Shown here piece by piece: positions 2 through 29,944 of a stretch of DNA of 39,138 nt; the stretch's first letter is position 1; the number at the start of each line of letters is the position of its first letter. The notes under the pieces are model-generated. The model had not been told where the DNA came from. It saw only the letters and a list, made by a program, of their open reading frames with translations, and searched no databases. Source of the DNA: Jimgerdemannia flammicorona (Eukaryota); the NCBI GenBank assembly GCA_003990765.1, contig RBNJ01000151.1, positions 1-39,138 on the forward strand. Reading direction: 5' to 3'. Position numbers and translations under genes: made by a program.

Positions 2-3000
2 GTGATCCCCACCACAATGATCAATCGAAACACACCTCAGCCAAAAGCTATAGAGCAACAAAAGAACAGTGACTCTATGGAGGAACTCACCAAAAGGTTT
101 GCTGAAATGACTGCCCACCTGGGAGATGTGGTAAAGGAAATCTGAGGAAGAGATCACCACCCTGTTCAGAAGTTTGCTGCCACCTCAGATAAGAAAAAAG
201 GTACCTGCTATAGCTGCGGAGAAGAAGGCCACTACTCCTACGAATGTATAAGTGAAACTAAATACAAGGCTCAACCAAGCAATGCCACATGAAACAAGAA
301 GCAGGCCAATACAATCACCTTTGAAAAAATCGGAGAATCCAATGAAGAGGAATAGGAGGCCTATCCTGCTCAGACCACCAAGAAGGATGCTCACAAAGAA
401 CCCTACAAGAGACCACCAAGAAGACCCAAGAAGAACCCAGTGGAAAAGTGGATGGAAACTGCTACAGAAAGCCAAGCCGAAGAGATGGACCAAGATATCG
501 AGCTGGAGCAAGCAGTTCAAGATATCATCCAAGGAACCACTCCAACCAGTGAAGGAGAAAAAGTAAAGAAGCTTTACAAGACCAAGACCTTCAAGTATGA
601 TATCTTCAAGGATCTCAGTCAACAAAAGGTCAATGCAACCTTTGGTCAGCTTACAGAAATCTCAACATTCAGACAGCAAATGAGGTTTGGACTTGCCAAA
701 ACAACCAAGGAACAAGGATGGAAGATAACTGAGGCCAATAATGTTCAAGAGGACTCAGGAGAAGAAAGTGAGGACAATCACAAAACCTCTGCTTATGTAA
801 CATGCCAAATTGAAGATAGAACCTTTGAAGCCATCATTGATATGAGAGCAGGAGAATGTCTTCTCAGTAAGAAGGCAGCAGACTGCCTAGGTTGGGATGT
901 GGAAGAAGCAACTAAGCTAGTATTCATCACAGCTGATAGTACAAGAGCCACACCTCTGGGAAAGATCCGAGATGTTTCCATCAAGATCGGAGGAGCAACA
1001 ATCTCAGTAGATGTAATTGTAACCAATGCCACCAACTATGATATCCTCATTGGCAATCAATGGCTTCACAAAGCCAAGGCGGTAATCGATCTCAATGCTC
1101 AGAAGATGCAGATCACCTACTGGGAACAGAAGATATGAATTCCCATCAATGTCAACAAAGGAGTCCTGCCTGATATGGAGGAAGAAGAGAGTGAGCAAGA
1201 GGAAGCTTATATGGTGACTACTCCTAAGAAGAAGAAAGTTGGATGGATGAGTGAAGAAGAATGGTGCAAGAAGATTGCAGAAGGTTATGCCCCACAAGGA
1301 GTCTGTCCTCATGGGATCAAGATGTACTGTATGGAGCATGTCAATGATTGCTACCAGTGCACCATCAGAACCAAGAAGATCTACCAGGAAAGAAGGCAGA
1401 AAGCTCTCGAAAAACAGATCAGGGAAGAAGAGAAGGAGGAAGATGATGAACCACCAGCCCTCCTGGAGGACAGTGATGATGAAGAAGAAATCAAGGTCAA
1501 GATTCAAAAGATCCACCCTGATGCAGTTTTGCCAGAATATAAGTCAGAAAACACAGCCAGAATGGACATCGCTACAGTAGAAGAAACTGTACTTGAACCC
1601 CAGACAACCACCCTACTCGCAACTGGACTAGAGATGACTATCCCAAAGAATCATGTTGGGATTCTCAAGACAAGAAGCAGCCTGGCTAGAAGCGAAATCA
1701 CAATCGAAGGAGGAGTCATTGATTCAGACTATACTGGAGAAATTCTACTCATTGCTAGGAACCACAATCCTACAATTCCATACCCAGTCAAGAAGAAGGA
1801 CTAATTGGCACAGATGCTGATCTTCCCAATCATACAGCTAAGGATCATAGAAGTCAAGAATCTGGAGAAAATGAAAAGAGGAAAGAAAGGATTTGGATCC
1901 ACAGGAAGAGAAGTATTCGCCAGCACCAAGATCACTGAACTCAAGCATAAGAAGGACAAAAACATGAGCAAGCACAGTTACACCATTGGAGACGAATTTC
2001 CACTCAAAGAGGAACTCAAGAAAATACTCCACAAATTTAAGGATATCCTTACCATAGATTTCAAGAATATCAAGAGAAAGACCCCATACTACTATCACAA
2101 GGTAGATACTGGAGACACCAAACCAATTTATCAGAAGGCAAGACCTGTCCTGCCAGCCTACCGAGAATGGCTCAGAGAAGAAATCAAGCAGATGGAAGAA
2201 GCCAGCATCATCAAAGAAGCCAGCAGCCCCTGGTCTTCACCAGTTGTACTAGCCCCGAAAAAAGAAAGCAAACCTGGAGAATTTGCCCCAAGGCTCTATG
2301 TCGACTACAGAAAGCTCAATGCAGTTACCAAGAAGGATCACCAACCACTGCCACTCATCAGTAATATCCTTATAATACTGGAAGATGAAGCAGAGTACTA
2401 CAGCACCTTGGACTTATACTCAGGATTTCACCAAATTGGACTCACAGAGATGGCAAGTGAAAAGTCAGCCTTCATCACCCCAGATGAAACCTATATCTAC
2501 CTACAAATGCCATTCGGAATGTACAATGCACCAGCAAGCTTTCAGCAAATGATGAACAAAATCTTCCGCTATGATATGGGAAGATAGATGATGGTCTATG
2601 TCGATGATGTAATCATCTACAGCAAGACACCTGAGGAACATCTGTAGCACATACAGCAGATAATGGAGAAAATAAGACAACATGGCCTTTATATCAAACC
2701 CAAGAAGTGCAAGTTTGCAGAAATTGAGATCTCCTATCTTAGCCATATTATCAATCGAGATGGAATACACATGGACCCCCTCAAAATACAAGCAGTAGCA
2801 GCATACCCAAGGCCCACTACTGTTACAGAAGGCTAAGCCTTCATGGGACTTGCCTCCTACTATTGCAGATTTATTAGAGGATTCTCTAACATCACAGGTC
2901 TAATCTACGAACTCAACAAGAAGGATACCAAGTTCCAGTAGACTGGCAGACAACAAAAAGCATTTGATGAACTCAAGATCAGACTAACTCAGACATCCAT

Positions 3001-3427: not shown

Positions 3428-4600
3428 GGAGCTCTACTATAGAATTATCACATACCTGGGACAGTGAAAGATGCCCCAACATCTGGAAGAATGGATATAA
3501 ATGATTATCAACAGGACATGGAAATAATTTGAAACTGACAGAGAAATACTGAAGAAAGGAAAACTACTGGTCATACCAGAATATAAGAAGGAGCAAGCGA
3601 TGAAATCAGTACATGAACTTGGCCATCTAGGAGGAACGAATACATATGACAAGGCAAGAAGAACAATATGGTGGCCAGGGATGGAGGAAGATATCAGACA
3701 ATTTGTCAAGACATGCAACAAATACCAGAAACAGAAACAAGACCAATGGAATCAAGCCCCAGGATCAGCACACATAGAACCAGTACCATTTGCCCATATA
3801 GCAATGGATGTAATCGGCCCTCTACCCTTGACCCTGACTGGTAACTGATACATCATTGTCATCGTAGACCTTTTTACGAAGTGGATAGAAGCAGGACCCC
3901 TCAAGGAAGCCAATGCACAGTCAATTGCTAATTTCTTCCACAAGTAAATCATCTGCCGGTTCAAGACCCCAACATAAGTAACTACAGATAGAGGAACAGA
4001 ATTCATGAACCAGCTCTTTGAGGTTCTCTACAAGAAGTACAAGATCCAGCACATTCGGACCACAGCCTATCACCCCCAAGGAAACGAACAAGTAGAAAGA
4101 ACCAACAAAACTCTCAAGAATGTTATCATCAAGATCTGTGATAACCATGAGAACTGGGATCACTATCTGCCAATAGCATTATCTGCTCTCTGGGATATCC
4201 GATCACAAAGCACCCACTTTACCCCTTGAGAAATGCTGTTCAGAGAAGAATGTTCTCAAGAAACCCTATCATCCAATGGAGATGCTGTATGGAAACATAT
4301 GGACATGGAAATACGGAGACTACACCAAATCAGGAAGAAGGCTGAGGATTACATAACCAAGGCACAGACACTATAACAGAGGAATACGGAAAAGACCCAC
4401 AAGCCCTTGGAGATTATCAAGATAGGAGACAAGGTCCTGGTGTATTGGAACATGGTAGAAGCTTCATGGTCACAAAAACTGGAGCCTAAGTGGGAAGGAC
4501 CTTACCTTGTACAAGATATAAAAGGGACCACCTTTTGGCTACGAAAACCCTCAGACACAATAATCTCCACCACCATTCACTAAAACTGATTCAAGAAATA
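3420..4600 (+). pseudogene. retroviral-type integrase (HHCC, DDE core, GPY/F tail), disrupted
   Basis: HELGHLGG...WWPGMEEDIRQFVKTC, AMDVIGPLP, TDRGTEF, YHPQGNEQVERTN and KLEPKWEGPY; no chromodomain seen. Confidence 0.9.
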
Positions 4601-5100: not shown

Positions 5101-5101
5101 T

Positions 5102-5579
5102 TGTGATAGTATAGCCGAATTAAGAAGAAGGAAATAGGGAATAGATACTTGATCGCATCCAGTCCCAAAGTAGTATAGCCTTATAGTTAGTAGTCCTCGA
5201 TTTCAACATTGTCTAAATTCTTAGATATTGTCTAAATTCTTAGACATTATCCAAATCGAATGTCTCGATTTAGTATAGCATTTAGACATTGTCCAAATAT
5301 TTTGACAAAGTCCAAATGACTCATCTATTACTTAGTCACCCTCTCATAGCTAGCAAACTTGTATAAATAACCTAATATCTTCGAGTGAATAAACCTCAGA
5401 TTGAAATAGTTCAAAGCAAAGAGATAGCAAAGGAACTAGTAAGCCTGTGGGCAGATACACTTCGAACTCACCCACCCTTCCCTACAACTTCAAGAAGACT
5501 CTGTGAGAGTCAGAACGGTCAAGTTTTCAAGATACAGAAATCTGACATACTTTCAAGAGTAAGCATCTGCTACGTTACA
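5102..5579 (+). repeat. 3' LTR of element 1 (478 bp)
   Basis: TGTGATAGTA...TACGTTACA ends, TATAAATA near 5362, AATAAA at 5388; similarity to the copy at 38931 starts exactly at the TG. Confidence 0.85.
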
Positions 5580-5886: not shown

Positions 5887-7937
5887 TATAAGAGGGTTAC
5901 TTTTTAGGGTAACCATTACATAGTTCTGGAAGAGTTTTTGGAAGTTCTGGGTATTCTGGAAGACTGTTTTCTTATGGTCAAGATCAATTTTGTATGGAGT
6001 ACGTCCTCTACGCTTATTGATTTCAAGATCAGGTTGATATCTCAACCAAAGTCCTTTTTTGGACTAGTTCTGGATGTTCAGGATTTTCCATATTTCAAGA
6101 AGTTCAAGAAACTAAGACCAGCTTAGTTGAATTGGCGTATTGCTGCAGACAATACCCAATTAGGCAATTTCGTGATGGGGTTAGGAGTAGGACCTAACAG
6201 GAAGCAGATTTACTTAAGAGTGGTTTGTGGGTTATAGAATAGGTTTATTTGCTATTCATGATATTGCTATACTAGGAGTATTTGTGTGAAGAGATATTGT
6301 GGGGAGGTATTCAGGAATGTTTGAGTCTGAGATTCTGAGGTCTGGGGGAGGGGATATTTATACTAGTAAGGGGCTATCTGAACTATACTAGATATGGATG
6401 TAGCACTAAGTGCCTTGCTGAGTCGGAATGCAGTCACATAGTACAAGTGTGATCTAATATATCAAGAGATCATCTGCCTGCTGAGTCAGTTCACAGTCAC
6501 GTCGTACAAGGCTAATCTAACTATATTATGACTACTAGGCTATTTATGGGTTTTAGGCGCTGTCTGGGTAATCTTCGATGATATCACCATTGATTGCATC
6601 ATCTCTGATGAAGTAGTTGTCTAGGAATAATGGTTCGCGGATTACTTCTCCTTGTTTGCTGAGGTAATAATACATTGGAACTTCGTCTCTGTCCCACAGG
6701 ATAGCATCGTCTGTCTCGTATGCTGGATAAGGTATTGGTGGGCAAAGGATGGGTGTATTGTCTTCACTTTCATTGGATTCACTATCTGCATACCTTCTAT
6801 AGGTTACAGCACTATGAGTCGCAGGGTTATAGTAAGCTGGTGGCTGTGGTTCATGTCGCTCATACTCAGGTAGTAGAGGGGTTGGTTTGATCTCGAGGGT
6901 TGTCTGGAGGTACAGGTTGTATTCTCCAGTCTCTTCATTGTAGTTGAAGTAATCGGGGGTAAATGCAGGTTGGTATTCATGCCAGTGGTCATTGTCCCAA
7001 TAAGTCTCGTATGCTGTTATGAATTGTTGTAAGTTCATTGATAAGGTTGGCAGAGTGATCAGGGTTGGCAGAGATCCTTGGCTAGAGGTCATGTCAGCAT
7101 CAGAGGGATCATTGTCTTCTGCTTCATCTTCATCAAAGTGGATTATATCGTAGATGTCCTTCATGGCATATCCAACTTGGGGCATTTGCAGGATATGATC
7201 ATTGGGGTGTGGGAAGGTTCTGTCTGTGGTTTCGACATACTTGAGGTACTTGTGATTGAGTTCTTGTATCATGTCATCGATTTGGCCATAGGACAGGGTA
7301 GCAACCATTTTACTGGTAGTAACTCGGAGGCAGGGAATAATGGTACTGTACTCATAGAAGAGTACTCGATGTTTGCAGGCAATGAGCTTCTGGTGTTGAG
7401 ACATCTGGATAAGTCTGTATCGTAGTGGTGATTGACTATATCTTCCAGGAGGCGGCTGATCTGATAGTAGCTTGAGATTTGTCTGATTCGGTGGGCCTCG
7501 CTAAGCATGTTCAGGGCATTCCATCGGGCTTCCACAAAGTAGAGGGGTATCAGACTATGGATATTCATGAGGGGCAGAGGGGGTGTGGCTTGGTTGACAA
7601 TAGTATTCCAAATGTCAGCATGGATACGGTTGTAGATCTCAGTGGTCATGTTTGTATATTTGGAAGTTGTGTTTGTTGTTTGTTTTGGTTCTCTGATTCA
7701 ACATGTCTCGGTGCTCAGTATATATGCATTTGGTCCTGATTGGTAAGATTCCGTTTGTGTAATTCTTGTGTTCTGTGACTTCGTATTGACTCAACTTTGT
7801 GCACTGTGACTTTGGTTTGACTCAGCTTCGTGATCAAGCAGGTGATTTCCAGTTTTGTTCAGAGGTCATGTGTGATTTCAGTGGCTTGTTCAGAGGGTGA
7901 TGTATAATTTCAGTGGCCTGGAGGTTGTGCGCTTACA
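5887..7937 (-). repeat. 3' LTR of element 2 (2051 bp)
   Basis: Colinear with 14172-16265; preceded on the minus strand by the PPT; TATAAATA at 6362-6355 and AATAAA at 6249-6244. Confidence 0.95.
6553..7649 (-). pseudogene. LTR (U3)-encoded orphan protein, ~365 aa, with a 1-bp deletion near 7410 in this copy
   Basis: The 126-aa ORF (from 7649) and the 283-aa ORF (from 7404) join in frame when the extra base seen in the other LTR is restored. Confidence 0.8.
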
Positions 7938-8094: not shown

Positions 8095-8250
8095 TATATT
8101 CCTGAACTAGGTCAGTAGCATTCTGGAGATTGGTCTTGGGTTCTCAGATTGCATCGTGGATCAGATAACCTTTCCATTTGACAAGGTACTCAGGGTGGTT
8201 CTTGTTACTATGTTTGTTGTAGATTTGTTCAACTTCATACTCTTCTTGGT
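8095..8250 (-). other. integrase C-terminal chromodomain
   Basis: EEYEVEQIYNKH...EYLVKWKGYLIHDAI*EPKTNLQNA. Confidence 0.9.
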
Positions 8251-11200
8251 CATTAATGATGACAGGTGCAGGTGGTTTGGTGGTCCGGTTTGGAAATAGC
8301 TCATCATCATTCTCATTGTATCACTTGAGACATTGAACATTAAAGACTGGGTGAATCTTAATGGTGTCTGGTAGCGCCAGTTTGTAGGAGGTTGGAGAGA
8401 CTTGTGCAATAACTTCAAATGGTTCAATGAACTTGCTATTCAGCTTTGTAGATGGTCTGTGCTTGAGGTTGTCAACTCGGTATCCTCTGATATCTAGTAG
8501 GACTTTTTCTCCAATATCAAAAGTTTCTTCTCAGCAGTATTGGTTAACATACTGTAACTGTTGTTCTTGAGCTCGTGATAGATTTTCCATTGCAATCTGG
8601 CTTAGATTCCGCATTCGGAGTAGGAATTCTTCAACAGCTTCGACTGTAGAGAGTTCTTCAGTGGTCCGGATAAGTGTCAAAGGGGTGTTTGGGTTTTGTC
8701 CAGTATTAGCGAAGAATGGAGTCATTCCAAGAGAGACTTGCTTGCTATTGTTGTAGGCAAACTCAACTGTGATGAGGTGTTCATGCCAATCATCTTGTCT
8801 GTAGGAAACATAGTTCCTTAGCATTTGTTCCAGAGTTCAGTTCATTCTTTCAGTTTGGCCATCAGTTTCTGGGTAAAAGGCTGTGGATAGTGCAAGTTTT
8901 GTTCCAAGGTGTGCATGGAGGGCTTTCCAAAAGTGGCTGGTGAATTTCGGATCTCGGTCACTAACAATGATCTTAGGAAGACCATGATAGCAGAAGATGT
9001 TGTCAAACAAGAGTGTGGCTATGTCTGGTGCTGTTGCAGTAGTAGTAGTAGGCACAAAGTGGGCTTGTTTGCTGAGATAGTCCACAAAGACAACAATTGC
9101 ATCTTTCCTGTTCTTGGTTTGGGGTAGTTGTACAATGGAGTCTATAGAGGTTTGTTCCCAATTTGTAGATGGTACTGGGATAGGGTGGAGTGAGCCGGGT
9201 TTTGCTAGTGTTGAGGACTTGTTTTGTTGGCAGGCATCACAGGAAGTGATATAGATTTTGAGCTGATCTGTCATGTGGGGCCAATAGAAGTTTCGGGAGA
9301 TAACTTCATAGCATTTGTCAAATCCTAAATGTCCAGCTGTAGGGGCATCATGACATTCAAATAGGATAGTCCTTCAGAGGTCTTGGTTGTTTGGGACATA
9401 CAATCTGTTCTTGTAGTAGATAGTATTGTCCTTGAGTTGGTATTGATTGTACCGGGTATGCTTGTCAGCATCATCATTGTTCAGGATTTCTTGGAGTGCT
9501 TGAGCTTCCTTATCATCAACATATGCTGCAATGATTTGTTCCATGATAGTGTTGGTAACCAAGGTCAGAGTTTGGATAACCTCTTCGATTGGTGGTCTGG
9601 AGATTGCATTGGCAACAATATTTTCCTTGCCACAGCGGTACTGGATTTCGTAGTCAAAGTTGGTAAGGACTTTCATCCATCTGGCTTGCTTTCGAGAAAG
9701 GGTAGCCTATATCTTGATGTTGACTAGTGACTTGTGGTCAGTCAATACAGTGAAGTGTGCTCCTTCTAGATATGGTCACCATTTGATCAGAGTGTCTACG
9801 ATGGCTAGCATTTCCTTCTTGTGAGTTACATAGTTGATTTCGGTATCATTGAACTTGCGGGAGTGATAGGCCACAGGGTGTCCTTCTTGCATGAGCACTG
9901 CTCTAAGAGCTAGGTCAGAGGCATCAGTAGTGACTTCATATAGTAGGGCAGAGTTTGCTGCTTGAAGTACTAGAGTGGTTATCAAGGCATCCTTCAGTGC
10001 TTGAAAGGTGGTATCTTGCTTGGATCCCCAATTTACAAGATTGTTGAAGTCTTTCTCTTATTTCATGGTCTAGAGTTGTTCTTGTTTCTTGCTGTGCTTG
10101 GTCATTTGGGTGAGAGCAGTAGTGATTTTAGCAAAGTTGGCAACAAATTGCCTGTAATAGTTTGCTAATCTCAGAAATGACTGGAGGTCTTTCAGCTTCT
10201 TGGGTCTGGGCCAATCTTTGATTGCAGAGATTTTGCTGGGGTCCACTTTGATTCCATTTAGAGTGACAATGTGTCCAAGGAATTGAATTTCTTTTAGGAG
10301 AAATTCGCATTTGCTGAGTTTTGCAAAGAGTCAGTTTTCTCAGAGTTTCAGTAGTACTAGTTCAAGATGTTCAAGATGTTCTTCCAGGGTTTTGCTGAAG
10401 ACTAGGATGTCGTCAATGTAGACAACAATGAATTTGTCTAGGTATGGGTGCAGAATAGTATTCATCAGTGCCTGGAAGGTTGCTGGAGCATTAGTTAAGC
10501 CAAAGAGCATGACCAGGAACTCGAAGTATCCATAGCGAGTTTGGAAAGCTGTCTTGTAGATGTCTTCTTCTTTCATAGTAATTTGTCAGTAACCATTTTG
10601 CAGATCAAAAGAGCTCATAAATTGTGGGTTGGTGAGCCTATCAAATATTTCATCAATCCTCGGTAGTGGGCAATAGTTCTTGATGGTCTGCTCATTGAGA
10701 TCACAGTAGTCAATGCACATTTGCAGGTCTCCTCCTTTTTTGACAATAAAGAGGACTGGTGCACCATAGGGTGATATGCTGGGTCTGATGAATCCTTGTT
10801 CTAGGAGTTTGTCAATTTCCTTCTTAAGTGCATCAATTTCTCTCAGAGATATGTGGTAGATTGACTTGAAGGCTGGTTTGGCATCTGAGATAGTCTTGAT
10901 TGCATAGTCTACTGCTCATTTAGGAGATAGGCCTTTCGGGAGTTTCTTTGGGAATATGTCTCGGAATTTCTGGAGTAGTGGTCTGACATGGCTATCAACT
11001 TTGGAAAAATCTTCTTCAGAGTTCTCGGGTTCTCCTTTGGATGGTCAGATGGAGATGGCGAAGAGAGGCATTTCTTGGCCAATTTTTTGAGTTGTAGCTT
11101 GTTGATGTGGGTAATCTTTGGTCCAGGGTCACTAGAGTTGAGTGAGTCCTTTTCGCCTTATAGTTTGAAGTTGTGGTGTCCTTTCTTGATGGTCAGAGAA

Positions 11201-11736
11201 TGGTTTATCCAATCAATCATAGGGTTCTCTTACTTTAACCATGGAGTCCCAAGGATGATTTCATTGTCAGGAAGTGGTGTGATTTGGAGGGTAACATATA
11301 CTCGGTAGTTACCAATTTGGAAGGGTAGATTGCGGACTTCTTCACTAATAACATGTGAGGTTCCATCAGCTGTAGCAACTGCTTGAGTTTGCTGTACTGG
11401 AGAGGTGAAGACCTTGAGTCTGTTGGCTGTCTCTTTATTGATAAAGTTGCTTGAGGCACCACTGTCTATCATAATCTTGACAGGTGCTCCATTGACAAAA
11501 GCCTTAAGGGTGAGCAGTTTGTCTGATCCAATGGTGGTGATTTCAGTTATAAGAGCCTTTCTTCTGTTGGTTCTTCTTTGAGTCAGTTCGTTGATACAAG
11601 AGAAGCAATCATCAATTATTCGGGAAGAGTACATTCTAATACCATGAGGGCATCGGCCACTTGGTACATATCCATCTTCAATCTTCTTGTAGAATTGTTC
11701 TTCCTTACTCATGGTAGGTTGGGCTGGGGCCTTGTT

Positions 11737-12140
11737 TGATGAGCCAAATCCTTTAGATTCTCGGATGGTGGGTAGTAGTTTAGGGACTTCCTTGACTGTC
11801 AGGGTTGACTCAATTTTTTCGAATAGGATCTGGGTGATACAGAAGCCCATAGGGATCTTGAAGGGTGTCCAACTGTGGTTTCGAATGAGGACAATGATTT
11901 CGCCTGTGTAATCTTTGTCAATAACTCCTTCTTCTACTGAGAGTCCTTTCAATGCTAGACTGCTGTGACAGCATATTCTTCCAATATGTTCTTTGGGGAT
12001 TTGGATACTGATTCCCGTGTAGACTTGTTTGACTTCTTGGTTAGAAACTGTAGCTTCTTTGGCTGTATACAGGTCATATCCAGCTGCTTTTTGACTTCCT
12101 TTGGTTGGGGCCTTAGCAGTTTGTCTTAACTTGACAATAT
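11737..12140 (-). other. dUTPase domain between the zinc knuckle and protease
   Basis: AAGYDLY, HSSLA, GVIDKDYTGEI, ITQILF and RESKGFGSS. Confidence 0.92.
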
Positions 12141-14158
12141 CTAGTATTCTGGTGGTCAGGTTGTTGAGGTAGTGAAGAGTGGTAACAGTTGCTCATGTTG
12201 CTGTTTGGGGTTTTCGGTTAGGGCAGGCACTGGCCATATATCCTGTCTTTTGGCAATAGAAATATGCTCCACTTCTTCGAAGTTCATTCCTTTTGCCTTC
12301 AGTAAGTTTCTTGAAGGTACTGGGCTAGATGGGTTCAGGATTTCTGGGTGTCCAAGAGGTGGATGTGGAGGGAGCTCGAGATGCTTCATGCTTGGGTTTT
12401 TCTTTCTTGGTCCAAGTCCTTTCCTTGTTGTTAAATTGTCTTTAGGGCAGAATTGGTCCAGCTGTTAGGATTCACTTGAGCATGGTCTTGATTCTTGCCA
12501 GGCACCATTGTTGGTGATCACAACCAACTGGGCGGCCTTGTTCTCAGATTTTTCTAGTAAGCCATTCAGGCAGGGCATCAAATAAATGGTCTGCTCTTGT
12601 ACCATTTCATGCTTCATCATTGGTAATATATCCTAGGCCAATAGTGTTCAGGAGTGACTCGAGTTTTGTACAGAAGGTTTCAAATTCTTCCTTGCCATGT
12701 ACATCAAATTTGAGGTTGCGGAGCTTTACTCGAGATTCAGCAATCATTGTTTTACTGCGATATTGAGCAATCATGAGTTGTTTGAGTCCAGGGGCTGCAG
12801 GATGTATTTCATATCCTGGGGCATTGTTTGCTGCATTCTGAGCAACTACTGCAGATCGAGTATCCCATATGAGGGGTTTTTCAGAAAGGGTTCACCACCA
12901 TTCTTCAGCAGGTCCTCAGAAGAATGTAACAACTTGGCAGACATAGGCTGTAGTAGTAGCAAAGAGTTGTTCCAGGGTGTGATCTTGATTATTTGTCAGA
13001 ACACAGTCAGCAACTCGCTCATTAGTCCATTGATTGGCTTTGAAGTTGGTGTCAACTACACTAATGAAGCTTTGGACTTCTTATACAGTGCCATTGAAGG
13101 TAGATAGGCTCAGATTTTTGGTAGGTCGGGTCTGTTCAGCTAAGGCAGTGATAGTTGCTGCCATTATAGCTACTTGGGCTGTGAGATCAAGAATCTGTTG
13201 GTTCACTATGTTGATTGCTGGAGGCAGTTGGACTGCTGGTAGTGGTGTTACTGGTACTACTTGAGGTACTGGTGCAGAGTGTGATGGGGTTCTTTGGGTC
13301 TGTGTAAGTTGCTGGAGTAGTAGTTGTAGGTCTGGAGTGAGGGCTTTATAGATAGCTGTTTGTTGCTATGTAGGTATATTCTGTCCTGATGGACATGTGT
13401 CTCCTTCAGTAGTGTATCTGGGATCGAATTCGGTGAGATACTCCTCCTCTTCTTCGGTTTGGTCCCCGTGTAATTGGGTTTGCTCAGCGTCAAAGTAGAC
13501 AGAATCAGTTGTATATCTGATTTCAGACAGACTTAATTCAAAGTCAAGTTCAGGTTCGGTATTGGTTTCAGATTCAGGTAGGGCTGTAGTAGGGCCTGCT
13601 TCAGGTTTGGGATCAGGTAGTTGATGAAGAGTTTTTCTTGCTTCTTCTTTAAGAATATGGCGGGCCTTGCTGTTCTGGAATCGGTAGTATAATGCAGTCT
13701 TGGTCCTGGTATGGTGAAAGTCAGTAGAGTTGAGCAACTTGGCTACAGAGGCTTGGGCTTTGTGAGGAACTAAGGCTAGAAAGACTGCTGCTGGTTGTCC
13801 TAGGTCGCTCAGATTTGTGGAGCTGACAAAACTCTTGTTGAGAAGAGTAAAGAAGGCTTCAATAAGACCTTCTTCATCTTGACTTGCTGGGTGTAGTGCA
13901 AGGAGTTCGGTGAATAGGGTTTTACCTATTTGCTGGTTTAACCTGAGTACTTCTTTCTTTGAATGAAGTTTGTCCCACTTGTTGCAGGTGTGGAGGTCAA
14001 ATTGTCCTTGTACGTTAGGTTCAATTCTCTCCAGATTGTCAGATGGTTCAGGATAAATTCCAGTTCAGAGGTTGGGCTTTATACCAACTTGTAGGAATTC
14101 TTGGAAGAGTTTGTAGCAGGGTGAGGAAGTGTCTTGAAGCAGAATTGGATTGTAAACT

Positions 14159-14171: not shown

Positions 14172-16265
14172 TGTAAGAGGGTTACTTTTTAGAGTAACCA
14201 TTACATAGTTCTAGAAGGGTTTTCTGGAAGTTCTGAGTATTCTGGAAGACTGTTTTCTTATGGTCAAGATCAATTTCATATGGAGTACGTCCTCTATGCT
14301 TATTGATTTCAAGATCAGGTTGACGTCTCAACCAAAGTCCTTTTTTGGACTAGTTCTGGATATTCAGAATTTTCCATATTTCAGGAAGTTCAAGAAACTA
14401 AGACCAGCTTAGTTGAATTGGCGTATCGCTGCAGACAATACCCAATTAGGCAATTTCGTGACAGGGTTAGGAGTAGGACCTAACAGGAAGCGGATTTACT
14501 TAAGAGTGGTTTGTGGGTTATGGAATAGGTTTATTTGCTATTCATGATATTGCTATACTAGGAGTATTTGTATGAAGGGATATTGTGGGGAGGTATTCAG
14601 GAATGTTCTTATATGTTCGAGTCTGAGATTCTGAGGTCTGGAGGAGGGGGTATTTATACTAGTGAGGGGCTATCTGGACTATGCTAGATATGGATATAGC
14701 ACTAAGTGCCTTGCTGAGTTGGAATGCAGTTACGTAGTACAAGTGTGATCTGACATATCAAGAGATCGTCTGCCTGCTGAGTCAGTTCACAGTCACATTG
14801 TACAAGGCTAATCTAACTATATTATGACTGCTAGGCTATTAATGGGTTTTAGGCACTGTCTGGGTAATCTTCGATAACATCACCATCGATTGCATCATCT
14901 CTGATGAAGTAGTCATCTAGGAATAATGGTTTATGGATTACTTCTCCTTGTTTGCTAAGATAATAATACATTGGAACTTCGTCTCCGTCCCACAGAATAG
15001 CATTGTCTGTCTCGTATGCTGGATAAGGTGTTGGTGGGTAAAAGATGGGTGTATTGTCTTCACTTTCATCAGATTCACTGTCTGCATACTTTCTGTAGGT
15101 TATAGCACTATGAGTCACAGGGTTATAGTAAGCTGGTGGCTGTGGTTCATGTCGCTCATACTCAGGTGGTGGAGTGGTTGGTTCGATCTCGAGGATTGTC
15201 TGGAGGTACAGATTGTGTTCTTCAGTCTCTTCATTGTAGTTGAAGTAATCGGGAGTGAATGTAGGTTGGTATTCGTGCCAGTGGTCATTGTCCCAATAAG
15301 TCTCATATGCTGTTATGAACTTTTGTAAGTTCATTGGCAAGGTTGGCGGAGTGATCAGGGTTGATAGAGATCCTTGGCTAGAGGTCATGTTAGCATCAGA
15401 GGGATCATTGTCTTCTGCTTCATCTTCATCGAAGTGGATTATATTGTAGATATCCTTCATGGCATATCCAACTTGGGGCATTTGCAGGATATGATCATTG
15501 GGGTGTGGGAAGGTTCTGTCTGTGGTTTCGACATACTTGAGGTACTTGTGATTGAGTTCTTGTATCATGTCATCGATTTGGCCATAGGACAGGGTAGTAA
15601 CCATTTCGCTGATAGTAACTCGGAGACAGGGAATAATGGTACTGTACTCATAGAAGAGTTCTCGATGTTTGCGGGTGATGAGCTTCTGGTGTTGAGACAT
15701 CTAGGTAATGTCTGTATCGTGGTGGTAATTGACCATGTCTTCCAGGAGGCGGCCGATCTGGTAATAGCTTGAGATTTGTCTGATTCAGTGGGCCTCGCTA
15801 AGCATGTTCAGGGCGTTCCATCGGGCTTTCACAAAGTAGAGGGGTGCCAGACTATGGATATTCATGAGGGGCAGAGGGGGTATGGCTCAGTTGACAATGG
15901 CATTCTAAATGTTAGCGCGGATATGATTGTAGATCTCAGTGGTCATGTTTGTGTATTTGGAAGTTGTATTTGTTGTTTGTTTTGGTTCTCTGATTCGACA
16001 CATCTCGATACTCAGTATATATGCATTTGGTCCTGATTGGTAAGATTCCGTTTATATAATTCTTGTGTTCTGTGACTTTGTATTGACTCAGCTTTGTGTG
16101 CTGTGACTTTGGTTTGACTCAGCTTTGTGTGCTGTAACTTTGGTTTGACTCAGCTTCATGATCAAGCAGGTAATTTCCAGTTTTGTTCAGAGGTTGCATG
16201 TGATTTCAGTGGCTTATTCAGAGGGTGACGTATAATTTCAGTGGTCTGGAGGTTGTATACTTACA
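14172..16265 (-). repeat. 5' LTR of element 2 (2094 bp)
   Basis: Direct repeat of 5887-7937 with one extra 31-bp unit; followed by the PBS. Confidence 0.95.
14849..15946 (-). pseudogene. second copy of the LTR-encoded ~365-aa ORF (two premature TAG codons)
   Basis: 1098 nt = 366 codons from ATG 15946; TAG at 15907-15905 (TGG in the other LTR) and 15703-15701 (CAG in the other LTR). Confidence 0.8.
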
Positions 16266-20441: not shown

Positions 20442-21544
20442 ATGGCCCCGCAAGAAATCCAACACCACGACCAATTCGACACACCAGCGCCGGCATCGCT
20501 ATCGGAGCTCGTGTCCGCGCTCAAAGAAGAGCTGGGTTCTGATGGCGGGCTCGACTCAGACCACGTCGACGTGAACCGGGTACTGTCCGTGATGGAGGCA
20601 TACAAGTCCAACGCCACGGACTGGCATAAGTATGCGCTGTTCGATCGTTCGAGGGCGTATACGAGGAACTTGGTCGACGACGGCAACGGCAAGGTAGGCT
20701 GAGTACTGATGAGCTGGAATCGGTGGGGAAGATCGTGTCGAATGGGTGCAACTGAATGGTTGTCGAGGTGGTGTACGTTAAGCTGAGCCAAAAATGAGTC
20801 TCCTCCAGTGGCTAACAAACTTGACCCATTCCATCGTCGCAGTTCAACCTCATCGTCCTAGCGTGGACAGAAGGCCAAGGTAGCCCTATTCACGACCATG
20901 CGGGGTCGCACTGTATCATGAAAGTACTGGACGGCGAGCTCAGCGAGACTATCTACGAGTGGCCCGAAACGGCCACGGAGGCCGGTGCCAAAGTCGTTGA
21001 GGACATCACCTCGAACCCTACCCCTATGAAAGGTGACGATCACCATGGCGAGCATGCGGGCCACTTGATGAACATCAAGCGGAGCACGACGTTGGGCACC
21101 GACGGCGTCACGTACATCCACGGTAAGGTTATCAACCAGCTGGAGAGAGGTCATTGTCGTATGTGCTGTAGAGTCTGAGGGGTTTGCTAATTTCGTGAGG
21201 TCTTCTATTTTCGGCATCCAGACAAGATCGGCCTCCACCGCATTGCCAACCCGTCGAGCTTCAAAGGCGCCGTCTCGCTTCATCTCTACACGCCCCCTTA
21301 CGACATGTGCAAGACGTTCAACGAGTCAACAGGCACGGCGCGATCGTCTGGTCGATGCGTCTTCTACTCAAAGGGCGGGTATCGTGTCGAGTCCTGCCCA
21401 AGCGTCACGCCCAAGCCAATCGCCATGTCCCTCGCCAGTAGCAGCATCGTTTCAGAATCACCATGCGGTGGCGGCAAGATTTCGTCGTTCGTCTCCAAGG
21501 AATGTGGTGCGCAGTATACTGGTGCTGAAGTTTGTACGGCGTGA
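20442..21544 (+). CDS. CDO1: cysteine dioxygenase (exons 20442-20693, 20843-21122, 21222-21544)
   Basis: YTRNLVDDGNGKFNL, SPIHDHAGSHCIMK, GLHRI and VSLHLYTPP; GT-AG introns preserve the frame. Confidence 0.95.
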
Positions 21545-21912
21545 GATGGCATCGGGTTTTTTTTGTGGGCTTTTATCCCAGCAAGGCCGCCGATCTAAGG
21601 GTAGGTGTACGCAATCAGAGGAGAAGGAAATGGTGAAATTTCCCGTGATCGTGCAGGTTGCTCCTGATTGGGTCCCGAAAATTTGTCACCCAGTGAACTC
21701 AAAAATATTTGTGATCATTTTAGTCGATATAAGACATTAATTAGTGCTTTTTTGGGGGGGGGAGTATATACAAAATATGTGTATGCTGTATGCGGATATT
21801 ATACGAATTATTCTATAGCGTGAGCGGACACTAATATCTGACCTTTTGAGCGGTTTCCTAAATGTCGACAACCAAGAGTGATATGTTGATGGCTATTATT
21901 TTCAATGTATAA

Positions 21913-22845
21913 CTACCATAATACTAAGTACACCCATTCCAGCATTACAATCAGCAATCCCAAAGAATCTTCACTCAAACGAACCCCATCTACTCCCCAA
22001 TGGTCAACATCCTCCTTTCCAAATGACATTAATCCATCGAGGAACACATCCATGGTAACGCCCACATCCTCATTGACGAGCACAAAAGTGACGCCCATAC
22101 GTGTGACCTCGGAGGTGCGCAACTCGTCGTCGAAGAAGATCATATCGGCATAGTCGATGTCTGTCTTCTCGGCGAGGGTGCGGAAATGGGCGCGCTTCGA
22201 ACTCGGGTAAATCTCGGCGTGCGCGATGGCGTCAGCGAAGGTCGTTAGGATCGGGTGGTCGGGTGTCGGCGGGAGGCGAAGGAGGGAGAAGACCTGCTTG
22301 GCCCTGGGGAAGGAGTTGGTTATTTGGTGGTCGCTGTCCCAATGCTTGAATCTATCAATCGATGCATTTAAGGCACTCACCAGTCGGGAGTATTGGTTCG
22401 CGATGCGACGCCAAACAGTGTATTGGGAAATTATCGAGTCATGTTAAAGATGTTGACGATGTCTACGAATGGGTTGATCTTGTTCCCGTTTCTGGAGATG
22501 TAGTGATGATATGAGTGTAAAAAGACAATGATCATGTAGCAATGCCAGTGCGTGTAAGGAGGAAAGCCAACGCACCGATCCAACACCAAGTTATCTTTTT
22601 CGTTGTATTTGAACGGAGGACCTGGAACAGAGTTAAGGATTAACATCCAGTCTCCATATTTGAATGGTGCTAACATGTACTGTAGATATGGGTATCAATC
22701 CTAGAGCCGGTTTGATGGAAGGGGGTTATTCGTCTTGGTAAGCAAAGGAGACGGCAGGCGAGACTGAAAATGACATACCACAATGGCCATATTGTGTAGT
22801 CCAGATCAAAGACGCGGGCAGAGCGTGTTGATCCCAGGTCGACAT
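21913..22845 (-). pseudogene. MDP1: magnesium-dependent phosphatase 1 (HAD family), with a frameshift and a nonsense codon
   Basis: VFDLDYTIWPLWIDTH, SPPFK, ASRT, IYPSSKRAHF and MIFFDDE over 5 exons. ATG 22845 is out of frame with DLDYT; in-frame TAA at 22433-22431. Confidence 0.85.
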
Positions 22846-23161
22846 GAGGGTGTGATCAGCTTGCGTAGAAAATTGGAGTTTGGTGATGTCGATGTGTTTG
22901 ATGCACTCGTCTTTCGATCGCTCGCGGTGTTCAATTCTCTCCGACAAATAGTTTATTCATTAGTCTATCTCGCTGCACGTCTTACGCTTATGCAAACCAC
23001 AAAAAATCTAATGCTATTCTTAATTCAAACGTCCAATCTACCTCTACGTTCGCTTCAGCTCGAACCCCTCATATCTACCCTATCATCCATTCTCCCCCAA
23101 CACCTGGTACGTTTCTCATATTTCTTACCCACGCTCGGAGAACGGTGCGACTACCCCTCCA

Positions 23162-24551
23162 TTACAACTTAGCCTGGCCCCCAGGATCTGCGACGGCAGG
23201 TGCACACACCTGCCCGCGCCACAGGCTCCTCACCACCCTGCCGCCGAGCACGTGGCGGTCGATGATGGCCTCCACGTGGCACGGACGCACGTTGCCATAC
23301 ATGTGGCCGCCGAGCGTGGGTGTGTGGATGATAACGTTGCCGGCGAATTTGTGGCCTAGTCGGTAGGGAAGAGTGTGAAAATATGATCGCGGTGCGGTGC
23401 TCAATAACGCTAATCATAATTGTAAATATGGAAACATGGATATAAGTCAAATACCTACCGCCAACGTGACTCGTCCCAAACACCTCAACTACCTTTCCCC
23501 CCGTGAGTTCGCGAGCCCTTTCCGCGCCCTCCCCCTCATCCTCTACAACCTCGGTACCACGGCAACCCAAAACCTCCTTCTTCGCCAACACCCTCTTAAA
23601 TTCCTGGATAATTAGCGGCCCGAGCACGCCGCACCTCTTATCGCGGCGGGTGTGCGTGCACACGAGGACGACGGCATGGGTCGTGGGGCGCAAGTCACGG
23701 TGCGGGAGGAACGCGGGGGCTTGCGATGTAGACGGGTTCAGGCTGCTCATCAGGATGGAGAAAGTGGAAGGCTTGGACGGGATGGTTAGGTGCGGCTCGA
23801 TATCGTAATAGAGTTTGAAGTCTGGGAAGAGGAGAATATCCGACGTGGGCCAGGTGGTGGTTGTGGGGTTGCGTTCTGACCGGATACGGTCGCACGCCGT
23901 GACAAAGAGGTTGTCGCCCGAATTTGTGGCTTCATGGCTTGATGCCATCTGAGAGTCCAAACCTTCCTTGCTCCCCACGCTCGACGTCTTGAACTCATCA
24001 ACCAGCGCCTTTATCGCGTTCTCGTCACTTTTCTTCGAATGAATAATGACCTCTCCCTCCCCCCTCCTCGTGGCCTCCCCCTCTCCCCTCTCGTGCTCAC
24101 TAAGCATCCACTCCCTCTTCACCTTCTGCACCGCCTCAATGACTCCTCCCTCGGCGGCTTCGACCTTCGCGCGCATCCACTCAGGCGCGTCCTCTCCGAC
24201 GCACGCGACGAGATGACGGCGGTAAGTCTTGGAAATCGCCATCGCGTCCGCTAGGTCGATCATGGCCCCGATCACTCCGGGGATCGGGTGCCGTTTGCAA
24301 GGGATGAAACCGTTGGGCTTGGCGGCAGAACAGCTCGCGGCATCACAGCAAGGGGAGAAGCGATCTAATGGAGGGAGATCGATATCGAAGGGCGGGAGGG
24401 TTTGGGGATTGGAGGTGGCGGTGTGTGTGGCCATGGAGAATGATGGATGTAGTATTTCGGGTAATGCAAAAAAACGTGTTTTTGACGGACTTGTGCAAAG
24501 AAGGGGACGCGGGAGGAGCCTGGCAAAGGGCATGATTCTTGTAGCAGCCAT
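23162..24551 (-). CDS. sucrase/ferredoxin-like (Apd1/Aim32 family) [2Fe-2S] protein; intron 23458-23356
   Basis: LVCTHTRRDKRCG (C-x8-C), SHVGG|HKFAGNVII, MYGNVRP and LWRG. Confidence 0.9.
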
Positions 24552-24689
24552 TCTGATCTGGATAGAGAGCTTCCATTTCTGACGACATTCGTTCGTCAGA
24601 CAACCCTTTCACGTGATGCCCTGACCAAGCCACCCGGAATTCGCTGGTTCGGCTACCCGCCAGCCACCATCCTCATCCCCTTGTCAGCC
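24552..24689. promoter_or_regulatory. compact bidirectional promoter with a TCACGTGA E-box
   Basis: 138 bp between divergent start codons; palindromic TCACGTGA at 24609-24616. Confidence 0.65.
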
Positions 24690-25730
24690 ATGACTAACCC
24701 GGAGCCCGCCCAAGAAGTTGCCCCCGTCACACACACCTCGCCGGCAGAGGAGATCGCAAGCTCGTCGGTGGACGCCAACCAAAACCATGCCGAGGTCCCC
24801 CAAGCTGAGGACGAGGAAGAGGAGTTCTTTGACGCACACGAGCAAGACCCTGTGGAAATCGAGGTAGTTTATTAATTCGAGGATGGTTGCGATATCATCT
24901 AAGTTACCTGCCGGCTTACATTACTATGAACCGCATTCATCTTGTATACCACCACCCTCCACGAAACCAGCGTCTACTATCGGAAGCCAATGAACACAAG
25001 AACGCCGGCAATCAATACTTCGCCACGGGACGGTATCAGGAGGCGATAAGCGAATACGAAGAGGCGTTGGGAATATGTCCCGAGGTTAAAGCGGAGGAGC
25101 GCGCGGTTTACTGGGGAAACATTGGCGCGTGTTACATGAAAATGGTGGGTATGCCGAAAAGAGTGTTCACAATATACCATAAACCTTGCAGAATATGTTC
25201 ACACTAACCCTTCCCACGACGGCCATGCTCCGCAGGAGGACTACAAGCAAGCTGAAGAAGCGTGCACCGAGTCGCTCACGCTTTCTCCACAGTACGCCAA
25301 ATCGCTTCTGCGGCGTGCGCAGGCTCGCGAGAAGCTGGGTACGTATTCTGCCATGTCGGACGCACTCGAGGACTACCGTGCGCTGCGGGATTTGAAGGAT
25401 ACGAACGACTACACGAGGCACGAATGCGAGAAGGCCGAGCGGAGGTTGCCCCCTCTGCTTAAAGAGAGGATGGAGAAGGAAAAGGAGGAAATGCTAGGTG
25501 AGTATGGTTGATGGATTTGGTGTGGACAGAGAGAGTGTGTGATGGGAGGGTGTCTAGGGTGATGCTTATTTATTTGGCCATCGGGAAACTAAACATTCGT
25601 AGGCAAACTCAAGGACTTGGGCAACACGCTACTCGGTAAGTTCGGTTTGTCGACGGACAACTTCCAGATGAAGCAGGATCCCGGGTCGGGGTCGTATAGC
25701 ATGAATTTTGTAAATAATCCCAAGAAGTGA
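24690..25730 (+). CDS. TTC1: TPR protein, TTC1-like (exons 24690-24863, 24971-25144, 25236-25497, 25603-25730)
   Basis: [24 protein letters not shown]-terminal [35 protein letters not shown]. Confidence 0.9.
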
Positions 25731-26384
25731 GTGTAATGGGCGCGCGTCCGTTCGCAGATATTTGTATAATATGAACAAATGCTTTATGATTGATATGATA
25801 CGGCAGTCTTCTGTGCTTGATTGGTATATCGTGAGCTTTAATGGCTATGGCGGTGCTGTGCCGTAGATACCATCACCGTAATGGAAACCAATGATATAGG
25901 GATCTGAGCAACAGATCTTTCTGAATTACTACATTTTTATATTGCGGCAGGCCACTGGCGTGAAGTTTCAGCGACAGCCAGACCCCATAGCCTACGTGAA
26001 GATCCGATCCGCGTCCTGCACATCATGAAATATCGATCCCCATGACCGTTCGACAATATTTCAAGTCTTTCATTGAAAAAGGCGACGACGAGCTCCTATT
26101 TTCATTTGAGACTATCTTTCATCGCCTAACGACGAGAAGTATAAGAAAATCAGTGAGGGTAGCAGCATAGCATCTCTCGAGTCTCCGCTAAATAATTGAA
26201 GGGTTATTGAGGGCCTCGATCAGAGAACCTAACGCTCCCGTACAATCAGGAAAGCGTGGGTGCCTTGTTTTGCGTGGGATTTTTCTGTCGCCTGCTCCTA
26301 TGATACTGTGTATCAAGAATTGGTCACGTGCAAGCACCCATATTGTCACGAAAGTAGAGAGCCTCCAACACCAACCAAGAAACA

Positions 26385-28069
26385 ATGAGTCTGGCTGCAA
26401 GAGGCTCCCGCGTCGTGTTCGTTGGAAACATCCCTTACGAGCTCACCGAGGAACAGCTCGTCGACGTTTTCAAGGAGGCGGGGCCCGTCGTCTCCTTTCG
26501 TCTGGTCTTTGACAGGGACACAGGGAGGCCAAAAGGATACGGCTTCTGCGAGTACCATGGTAAGTAGGCCATCCACCACTCGCCTTTCCTCTCCTTTCAA
26601 CGCGCGATTTGCAATTGAACGTCTATTTCTCTGCAGACGCCGAAACCGCCGCTAGCGCCGTCCGGAACCTGAACAATTACGATGTCGGCGGCCGCCAGCT
26701 CCGCGTCGACTACGCCGAGGCCGACCCCATGATCGAGGCTGCGCGTGCGCAGGAGCAGGCAGGGGTAAGCCTGTCTTTCCTCCTCTACCCTCTCATCTCG
26801 CTTTACTTCACCAATGCTAATCCCAGCTCCCCAACTCCCACAGTACGGCTCCTCAGGTCCATCTCAGCCGCGATCAGCTCAACCCGTCTACCAGCAGCAA
26901 CAGCAGCCGCAGCCACAACAGCAAGCGCCCCTACAACACCAGCCGGCACCGCAGGCCCTCCCGACGGCGGCGCCTCAGGTGCAGGGACAGTCGGCTATGG
27001 ACGCCATTACGAAGACTCTCGCAGCCATGAATCCGACGCAGCTATTTGAACTGATGACGCAGATGAAGGTGGGTTTTTTGGGCGGGCTCGGATGTGTACG
27101 GGACAAGGATGAAGAAGGCGATGAAAACCGTGTCCTAGGTAGCTTTGCTTATGACGTTCTTTTCATGTTGGATCTATGCAGGCTCTCGTGCAAAGCAATC
27201 CGGATCAAGCGCGCGGCCTTCTTGCAAGCCAGCCCCAGCTAGCCTACGCTCTGTTCCAGGCCATGACCATGATGGGCATTGTGGACCCCGCGGTCGTCCA
27301 GGTAACTGATATTTTTCCTTCTTCTCCCTCCAGTGTTTGAATTCCCTCCAACCCCCTCCAACCCCTTCCAACTTCCAACAGCGCATCCTCGCCCCGCAGA
27401 TCGCGGTCCTCCAGCCACTACCGCAACCCCCGCAACCCCCCCAACCCCCGCAGCCGCAGCTCATCCCGGCTGCTTACGCCGCTGCGTATCCCCCGCAGCC
27501 CACCGTCGTCGCCTCCACGCTGACCGCACCCGTGCAGCCGGCGCAGCCTATCATGCAGCCCCAGGCGCCGATGATGGCGGCGGCGGGGTTGAGTGAGTTT
27601 GTGTGGTTGGAGCTGAGTCTGTTTGGGAAAGGGGGTGGGGGTGGACTTGCGTGGTGTCATAATGGCTATTAGTTGTTTCAACAATATTTACTCCCTTTTG
27701 CTAATCTCGCAGCGGACGCGCAAGAGCAACAGAGGGTAAGAACAATTTTTCTATGCGCCTCCTCGTTATGTTTTTACTTTCAAAGTACCCGATGTCCTAC
27801 TTACCAACATCGCCCAATTCTCTCTCGCGCTCACCTGATCTCAGGCCTTGCTAATGCAAGTCCTGTCCCTGACGGACGCCCAGATCAACTCGCTACCGCC
27901 GGACCAACGCGCAAACGTCTTGCAGCTGGTATGTTTTGTCGTGGGGCATATGGAGGTGCATTGCCGGACTTGTGTTTAGCTTGGCGAAACGGCCCCCACT
28001 ATTGACTTGCCCTGTTTATTCTGCAATCGTGACCCACAGAAACAGCAAATCTTGATGAGCCAGACGTGA
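26385..28069 (+). CDS. CSTF2: cleavage stimulation factor 64-kDa subunit / RNA15 (multi-exon)
   Basis: [12 protein letters not shown]...[10 protein letters not shown], hinge NPDQARGLL...QLAYALFQA, and C-terminal [20 protein letters not shown]. Confidence 0.93.
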
Positions 28070-28285
28070 GCCACGCCGGACGTGATCGTTCGATGGCACT
28101 GCTCAGCGCCCGTGTTCCAATTGCGTTATAGGGCGACCGTGAGTTGGCGATTCGAGGTCCCTCGTAGATTTGGTGAACCTGGATGGGACGTTGCCCTTAT
28201 TTTCTCGCTTGGGCGATATTACTTGGTCGAGGGGCATTGTTGATGATGTACAGTAAAGGTTTTATGTTTTCAATTCCGCGTTTTG

Positions 28286-28288
<3 letters not shown>

Positions 28289-28338: not shown

Positions 28339-28339
<1 letters not shown>

Positions 28340-29877: not shown

Positions 29878-29944
<67 letters not shown>

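Follow-up and report, generated by a model that had tools for sequence, protein, structure and literature searches.

A small Cys/His module between protease and dUTPase in two Ty3/Gypsy retrotransposons from Jimgerdemannia flammicorona

dUTPases and small zinc motifs in retroelements

dUTPases have been acquired by retroelements on multiple occasions, and their role in retrotransposons is still termed unclear (PMC2864245). In fungal Gypsy elements, the dUTPase is positioned at the N terminus of Pol, between the protease (PR) and the reverse transcriptase (RT), or at the C terminus (PMC2864245). In the rotifer element Juno, the dUTPase lies between PR and RT and is followed by an extra zinc knuckle (PMC5408684), and in betaretroviruses the nucleocapsid (NC) and dUTPase form a trimeric fusion, NC-dUTPase, whose NC domains assume the dUTPase's trimeric symmetry upon oligonucleotide binding (PMC1802613). 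Gypsy elements of the CsRn1 clade carry a Cys-His-Cys-Cys (CHCC) signature, CX2HX9CX3C, in Gag (PMC2582038). The 39,138-nucleotide contig RBNJ01000151.1 from Jimgerdemannia flammicorona (assembly GCA_003990765.1), referred to below as the window, contains two decayed Ty3/Gypsy long terminal repeat (LTR) retrotransposons, elements 1 and 2, each of which encodes a short segment with the spacing C-x-H-x12-C-x2-C between PR and dUTPase. This segment, termed the module, is well supported as an independently folding mini-domain of ~45 residues, part of Gag-Pol in a dUTPase-carrying group of Ty3/Gypsy elements.

The module of element 1 spans 1247..1408 on the plus strand (54 residues; row 1 of the profile used to find relatives) with its Cys/His core at 1304-1360, and the module of element 2 spans 11548..11712 on the minus strand (55 residues) with its core at 11596-11652. 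Translation of 1247-1410(+), in which the final complete codon ends at 1408, gives MSEEEWCKKIAEGYAPQGVCPHGIKMYCMEHVNDCYQC...RRQKAL, and translation of 11548-11712(-) gives MSKEEQFYKKIEDGYVPSGRCPHGIRMYSSRIIDDCFSC...RRKALI, in agreement with the translations quoted in a preliminary description of the window that was made from the sequence without database searches. The homology claimed there is borne out as well: in BLASTP of the two host open reading frames (ORFs), the modules align with 26 identities over 58 positions (45%; E 6e-14), the Cys/His spacing is the same in both copies, and when either module is run by tblastn against the full window, nothing but the two copies is matched at E < 0.1. 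A six-frame regular-expression search of the window with C.H.{10,14}C..C returns three matches, including one in a stop-filled frame. The bare Cys/His pattern is therefore not rare, and the observation rests on homology rather than on the motif alone. An antisense ORF that runs across the element 1 module, 1004-1543(-), was rejected as a gene, being a Phe/Leu-rich mirror of the Lys/Glu-rich coding strand.

The domain order around the module is permuted between the two elements, as had also been described. In element 1, a retropepsin at 761..1129 (+; Pfam RVP_2, E 1.3e-8, and gag-asp_proteas, E 2.5e-8; residues 136-258 of ORF 356-1138) is found 5' of the module, and the dUTPase at 1490..1924 (+; Pfam dUTPase, E 3.2e-15) is found 3' of the module and an acidic linker, giving the order PR-module-dUTPase. 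In element 2, the dUTPase, module and PR share a single ORF, 11230-12192(-), with the dUTPase (11737..12117, -; Pfam dUTPase, E 3.4e-30; residues 26-152) immediately 5' of the module and the retropepsin (11233..11538, -; Pfam gag-asp_proteas, E 4.8e-13; residues 231-320), which is truncated by a stop, immediately 3' of it, giving the order dUTPase-module-PR. When the database relatives described below are included, the module lies between PR and dUTPase in nine of nine sequences in which both are visible, in line with the earlier claim that it always does so; the assignments were made by Pfam for elements 1 and 2, P0003, P0007, P0012 and P0014, and by eye for P0009, P0021 and L001. This placement may reflect a functional coupling of the module to the dUTPase or to the protease.

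The betaretroviral NC-dUTPase (Mason-Pfizer monkey virus p30-type; PMC1802613, PMC4531489) shares with these elements a dUTPase, a flexible linker and a small zinc module, located in the gag/pro region next to the protease. The relatives P0008 and P0009 and the decayed element 2 likewise run NC knuckle, dUTPase, module. The betaretroviral dUTPase, however, has as its partner the Gag CCHC nucleocapsid, a strongly basic domain on the N-terminal side of the enzyme. The module is instead a CHCC motif that differs in its spacing, is close to neutral in charge, has a predicted helical fold and occurs alongside the CCHC knuckle. Juno also has an additional zinc motif in Pol adjoining a dUTPase placed between PR and RT, but its order is PR, dUTPase, knuckle, RT as opposed to PR, module, dUTPase, RT in element 1, a comparison made from the published description only (PMC5408684). 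The fungal Ty3/Gypsy elements with a dUTPase (PosPlaTy3-3/-4/-5, and elements of Phanerochaete and Tuber; PMC2864245) are of the same host type, and the element 2 position of the enzyme, at the N terminus of Pol, and that of element 1, between PR and RT, are both reported there; in the available text of that paper, CCHC and HHCC are the only zinc motifs named and the word "zinc" is absent. The CsRn1 Gag motif has the same Cys-His-Cys-Cys ligand order in a Ty3/Gypsy protein but differs in its spacing, C-x2-H-x9-C-x3-C rather than C-x-H-x12-C-x2-C, and, as described in the available text, replaces the Gag knuckle in animal elements (PMC2582038). Here, the Gag CCHC is retained as well, and the module is found by the protease.

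Relatives, conservation, predicted fold and inheritance of the module

A profile built from the two modules matched 17 proteins at E <= 1e-3, seven of them at E <= 1e-10, among 1.84 billion representative proteins. On inspection, 14 of the 17 are true relatives (P0004-P0016 and P0020); P0017-P0019, internally repetitive proteins matched in four to eight weak stretches, were dropped. With P0003 and P0021, added through word-index protein searches, the database relatives number 16, all singletons or near-singletons on metagenome contigs of 0.7-8.5 kb that come from metagenome-derived protein sets, collections poor in transposon polyproteins. In word-index searches with region 150-225 of the element 2 ORF, one of 11 candidates from the "near" search and none of 17 from the "longer" search matched. 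Among metagenome contigs, 19 pattern matches were reduced by tblastn to four; two of these, L003 and L004, are without the motif, and only L001, a decayed relative of element 2, and L002 are genuine. IMG/VR viral contigs gave 25 pattern matches and no relatives. Prokaryote genomes gave 23 pattern matches, of which four passed tblastn, none with the full motif or an open frame, so these are regarded as chance matches to G-R-C-P-H-G-I. In the ESM Atlas, the top feature score was 0.80 for the element 1 module, and nothing usable was returned for the P0009 module.

By Pfam (E <= 1e-3), 12 of the 16 database relatives have a dUTPase in the protein that bears the module, as do seven of the eight matches of a further "longer" search. 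The order dUTPase-module(-PR) is adopted by element 2, L001, P0003, P0005-P0009, P0012 and P0013, and the order (PR-)module-dUTPase by element 1, P0004, P0014, P0015 and P0021. The proposal that the module travels with dUTPase thus stands as a description of the usual arrangement but not as an exclusive rule, P0010, P0011, P0020 and L002 having a module and no visible dUTPase on their short contigs.

In an alignment of 15 modules with 24-53% identity to element 2, the four candidate ligand columns are the most conserved of all (Cys 15/15, His 14/15, Cys 14/15 and Cys 15/15). Two copies depart from this pattern: P0007 reads CPYG, a His-to-Tyr change, and P0004 reads D-Y, a Cys-to-Tyr change; both copies look decayed, and both losses are transition changes like those in the decayed knuckle of element 2. 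In a second set of 15 rows, the three Cys residues are invariant and the His is present in 14. The Cys/His residues are accordingly kept among homologs, each of the four positions being invariant or lost only in visibly decayed copies. With four conserved metal-ligand positions (Cys, His, Cys, Cys), the module most likely binds one zinc ion. An extra Cys and His (M-Y-C-x-E-H) are confined to a subset of modules and are therefore not core ligands. The remaining conserved positions are aromatic or hydrophobic (W/F-Y, I/L, G-Y, P, G and M-Y) and, judged from the alignment, look structural. Net charge ranges from -1 to +6 over 47-64 residues and from 0 to -3 in the Cys/His core, unlike the basic character of a nucleocapsid, mild basicity being confined to the tail of the C-terminal helix. 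The linkers that flank the module are long, variable and of low complexity.

AlphaFold2 predictions for the element 2 copy, made with the 15-row alignment, have a predicted local distance difference test score (pLDDT) of 87.7 for a 60-residue construct and 87.2 for the 47-residue core. Both models adopt an N-terminal helix, a short hairpin with C-x-H in its turn, a short helix, and a long helix with C-x-x-C in its first turn. This description of the fold is taken from the secondary structure (DSSP) of the models. Treble-clef zinc fingers draw two of their ligands from a β-hairpin knuckle and the other two from a helix, at its first turn. The module may be built in a similar way, C-x-H being located, by DSSP of both models, between two short strands and C-x-x-C at the start of a helix; it differs in that its knuckle is C-x-H rather than C-x-x-C and in that an extra N-terminal helix and a short helix are predicted to pack on it.

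Searches for a known family gave the module no name. Pfam reported no family above its cut-off for any of the 15 module members, and single-sequence hmmscan of these members at E <= 10, which is less sensitive than profile-profile comparison, revealed no consistent family; the top shared family, DUF1451, was matched by two of the 15 (best E 0.046), and all others by one member each. A PDB sequence profile search produced no matches at E <= 10, and Foldseek against PDB and BFVD none at E <= 1e-3. With VIA-align, the top Z among 48,161 chains was 3.6 for the 60-residue model and 3.0 for the 47-residue core, where Z under 8 is noise for this tool; its top rows are mostly three-helix DNA-binding domains, including homeodomains and a terminase DNA-binding domain, at Z 2.2-3.6 and root-mean-square deviations of 2.8-4.9 Å, within that noise. 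No treble-clef, zinc-ribbon or knuckle structure is among the structural matches listed by Foldseek and VIA-align. In the available texts on fungal, rotifer and retroviral dUTPases, which did not include the two 2008 primary papers on fungal dUTPase elements, the motif is not described.

Known retroelement zinc motifs do not account for the module either. The Gag zf-CCHC knuckle has a different spacing, C-x2-C-x4-H-x4-C, and is unmatched by the 15 members at E <= 10, and the integrase HHCC finger (PF17921; H-x3-4-H ... C-x2-C) matches at 3528-3848 and 8837-9373 rather than at the module. Both motifs occur elsewhere in each element by regular expression and Pfam, so the earlier distinction of the module from them is upheld. 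The CsRn1-type Gag CHCC motif, described in the available text as near the C terminus of Gag, differs in both spacing (C-x2-H-x9-C-x3-C) and position. It is therefore well supported, within the reach of these searches, that the module belongs to no named family, as the preliminary description had supposed, and that it represents a new domain family of a known kind, the accessory zinc modules of retroelement polyproteins.

Sequence comparison of the two elements shows that the accessory parts are about as diverged as the core enzymes: the identities are 45% for the module and 38.5% for the dUTPase, close to those of RT (31-40%), RNase H (29-37%) and integrase (32%), and PR gives no tblastn match at E <= 1e-3. 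In a maximum-likelihood tree of 14 dUTPase domains, calculated without an outgroup, the two domain orders split on one branch (support 88/82), with five PR-module-dUTPase rows on one side and nine dUTPase-module(-PR) rows on the other, and a single order change is found in 88% of the bootstrap trees. The partial rows in one group span a different half of the dUTPase domain from those in the other, a difference that could aid the split; the full-length rows split likewise. The sequences suggest that the module was co-inherited with the dUTPase in two sister architectures, without moving on its own. Transfer and a single acquisition of dUTPase and module with a later rearrangement around the protease explain these results equally well, and the description of the module as mobile is not sustained.

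Host elements and the rest of the window

Both elements encode polyproteins that are now split into short ORFs. Pfam matches to PR, dUTPase, RVT_1, Integrase_H2C2 and rve in each place them among Ty3/Gypsy elements with a dUTPase, and their RNase H regions align with one another, an assignment based on that alignment rather than on Pfam. Element 1, on the plus strand and truncated at its 5' end by the start of the window, comprises a CCHC knuckle, PR, the module, an acidic linker, dUTPase, RT, and an integrase with an HHCC finger. Its intact Gag knuckle, C-x2-C-x4-H-x4-C, distinct from the module, lies at 206..247 (+; six-frame regular expression), a partial reverse transcriptase at 2288..2569 (+; Pfam RVT_1, E 2e-15) and the HHCC finger at 3528-3848 (+; PF17921, E 4.2e-18). 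The dUTPase has an in-frame stop at 1802-1804, where the translation of P0004 has Gln, and its GFGSTG motif lies past this stop. The acidic linker (1421-1500, +) contains the motif P-A/E-L-x-x-D-S-D-D-E-E, which is kept between module and dUTPase in P0004, P0015 and P0021, all of the PR-module-dUTPase type, and could be a processing or phosphorylation site.

Element 2, on the minus strand, comprises an LTR, a decayed knuckle, dUTPase, module, PR, RT, integrase, chromodomain and a second LTR. The integrase finger and core are found at 8837..9373 (-; Pfam Integrase_H2C2, E 2.8e-19, and rve, E 2.4e-7) and the chromodomain at 8147..8275 (-; Pfam Chromo, E 2e-7; 31.2 bits, above the cut-off of 25.1). 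A chromodomain was not seen 3' of the element 1 integrase in three frames inspected by eye only, and on this basis the two hosts are of different types, as first proposed. The further proposal that each element has its own CCHC knuckle holds in full for element 1; in element 2, the knuckle, just 5' of the dUTPase at 12223..12264 (-), has decayed to Y-x2-C-x4-Y-x4-C, the corresponding CCHC being intact in P0008 and P0009. The LTRs, each ~2 kb, lie at 5935..7937 (-; 3' LTR) and 14221..16265 (-; 5' LTR) and are defined by direct repeats D1-D4, which are 88-95% identical at a spacing of ~8.3 kb.

Each LTR of element 2 contains an intact ORF of 283 residues on the strand of the element, 6553-7404(-) and 14849-15700(-), with no Pfam match. 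These ORFs stay open while the internal polyprotein is riddled with stops, and an ORF this large within an LTR is unusual. Between the copies, 57 of 852 bases are different, and transitions account for 54 of these; neither indels nor stops are present. Selection was considered and rejected as an explanation, the ratio of nonsynonymous to synonymous differences per site (pN/pS) of 0.38 being near the value estimated here for transitions alone without selection. Decay in the elements and their relatives is mostly of transition type (Cys to Tyr, His to Tyr, and a stop where P0004 has Gln), as observed at 12223-12264(-), at 1802-1804(+), and in P0004, P0007 and P0016. AT-rich blocks of 24-35% GC are present at about 16-19 kb and 29-31 kb of the window, and together with the transition-type decay they are compatible with a process resembling repeat-induced point mutation or with deamination.

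A second context of the module is seen in L002 (2-1120, +) and at the C terminus of P0010, in which a W-C-x-C-x-x-C motif lies downstream. In L002, this motif is followed by further Cys-rich stretches in one frame with two stops, and a stretch of the form G-W...W-x-R-D-E-N-I located 5' of the module scores above the Pfam cut-off for SCNM1_acidic (30.2 bits, cut-off 27; E 3.5e-7). Similar G-W stretches recur ahead of the module at the N terminus of P0015 and at the L002 3' end. The context in L002, P0010 and P0015 may represent a Gag-side duplicate of the module.

Outside the elements, a direct repeat of 138 nucleotides is present at 5101-5238 and 38930-39067 (90% identical, 33.8 kb apart); either the element 1 LTR or some other repeat family may have contributed this fragment. 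The region 21195-37942 contains ordinary eukaryotic host genes with Pfam matches and has a GC content of 50-56%, compared with ~43% in the elements. These include an Acid_PPase gene (21913-22380, -), a sucrase/ferredoxin-like (Suc_Fer-like) gene (23169-24551, -), an AtuA gene (31544-32587, +) and a weak match to Glycos_transf_4 (35452-36018, +).

Possible roles of the module and significance

What the preliminary description observed is thus confirmed overall, and its interpretation, a zinc-binding accessory domain coupled to the dUTPase or protease, is supported in part. The reading preferred here is tentative and held with low confidence: by analogy, self-cleavage may leave the module on the dUTPase as an adaptor in the reverse-transcription complex. 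The protease would cut at its own ends, so that the module would remain joined to the dUTPase, at the C terminus of the enzyme in one order and at its N terminus in the other. The retained module could then serve as a single-zinc adaptor, keeping the trimeric dUTPase within the reverse-transcription complex through a contact with nucleic acid or with another Gag or Pol component, the role ascribed to the fused NC zinc knuckles of the betaretroviral NC-dUTPase. This proposal is modeled on two precedents, the betaretroviral NC-dUTPase fusion and the extra zinc knuckle that adjoins the dUTPase in Juno; the binding of zinc, the identity of the processing products and the function as an adaptor are all putative.

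Several observations weigh against an adaptor retained on the dUTPase. The module is near neutral and not basic as a nucleocapsid is, a tetrahedral arrangement of its ligands is putative, and which neighbor keeps the module is a guess. A dUTPase and module that formed a unit would have kept their relative order on simple translocation, and the order is not kept. Four of the 16 relatives have no visible dUTPase: P0016, a 63-residue fragment, and P0010, P0011 and P0020. In the latter three and in L002, the module is preceded by between 16 residues (P0011) and ~110 residues in which a dUTPase is absent. All four of these dUTPase-less cases are on contigs of 0.8-1.6 kb, so a more distant dUTPase is possible; either the module can exist apart from a neighboring dUTPase or the short contigs hide one. 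The module tree (18 rows, 45 columns), in which none of 15 inner branches is strongly supported, does not resolve, and the dUTPase-less copies can therefore not be placed in it. A complex prediction for three dUTPase chains and one P0009 module chain, made without alignments or controls, scored 0.00 and is neutral on binding.

It is somewhat unlikely that the module is instead a small zinc-stabilized binding domain with a role of its own, such as recruitment of a host factor or a helix-turn-helix-like contact with protein or nucleic acid, which entered one ancestor together with the dUTPase at junctions flanking the protease that tolerate insertions, and was inherited with it thereafter. The modules of P0010, P0011, P0020 and L002 that have no adjoining dUTPase would be expected in this case, as would the different Cys motif (W-C-x-C-x-x-C) after the module in L002 and P0010, the SCNM1_acidic-passing stretch before it in L002, and the long, variable, low-complexity linkers on either side. 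Plain co-inheritance also suits the dUTPase tree, and the weak top structural rows, at Z 2.2-3.6 within noise, are mostly three-helix DNA-binding domains. However, 12 of the 16 relatives have a dUTPase on the same short protein, the location between PR and dUTPase is kept in both orders (9/9), which would be a coincidence if the module were purely a passenger, and every dUTPase-less case is on a contig of 0.8-1.6 kb. That the module stays with the retropepsin, where it could promote or delay dimerization and self-processing, is unlikely. The N- and C-terminal strands of retropepsins lie side by side in the dimer interface, so a module at either end would occupy the same place, and the permuted order, with the module N-terminal to PR in element 2 and C-terminal in element 1, would be natural. 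In element 2 and P0003, only ~8-10 residues separate the last module helix from the first PR strand, and no other stretch is as well conserved between the elements as the module (45%), their PR regions having no tblastn match at E <= 1e-3. On the other hand, the linker between module and PR is 25-45 residues long and variable in P0007, P0009 and P0012, ~45 residues including an acidic run separate PR from the module in element 1, no PR was seen near the module in L002, P0010, P0011 and P0020, and most Ty3/Gypsy proteases, to our knowledge, function without a module of this sort.

It is decidedly unlikely that the module constitutes a new zinc-binding fold and an obligate partner of retroelement dUTPases, physically linking the dUTPase trimer to the protease dimer or to the reverse-transcription complex, although a link between dUTPase and protease would account for a module kept between them in either order. 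If true, such a module would be a device dedicated to assembly or targeting, for the control of uracil in reverse transcription, of a kind described for no retrovirus or retrotransposon. The opposite extreme, in which the segment binds no metal and is a conserved linker or cleavage-site region with incidental Cys and His residues, or an over-confident AlphaFold model, is highly improbable. The zinc site is a prediction from sequence and model, the alignment is shallow (15 rows, all metagenome fragments), and in the ESMFold2 complex job the partner had a pLDDT under 50 in at least one run. Nevertheless, no columns are conserved better than those of the ligands in sequences that share only 24-53% identity, the sole losses are Cys-to-Tyr or His-to-Tyr changes in decayed-looking copies, and two independent AlphaFold2 runs concur with a pLDDT of 87.

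The module overturns nothing known and is a modest but real addition to the retrotransposon parts list. It is a candidate new family for Pfam and for transposable-element annotation libraries, and a marker for one fungal-type Gypsy group. Considered together with the betaretroviral NC-dUTPase and the Juno knuckle, it hints at a recurring pairing of dUTPase with a small zinc domain, and its retention between dUTPase and protease in two orders offers a handle on how the dUTPase is deployed in the particle.

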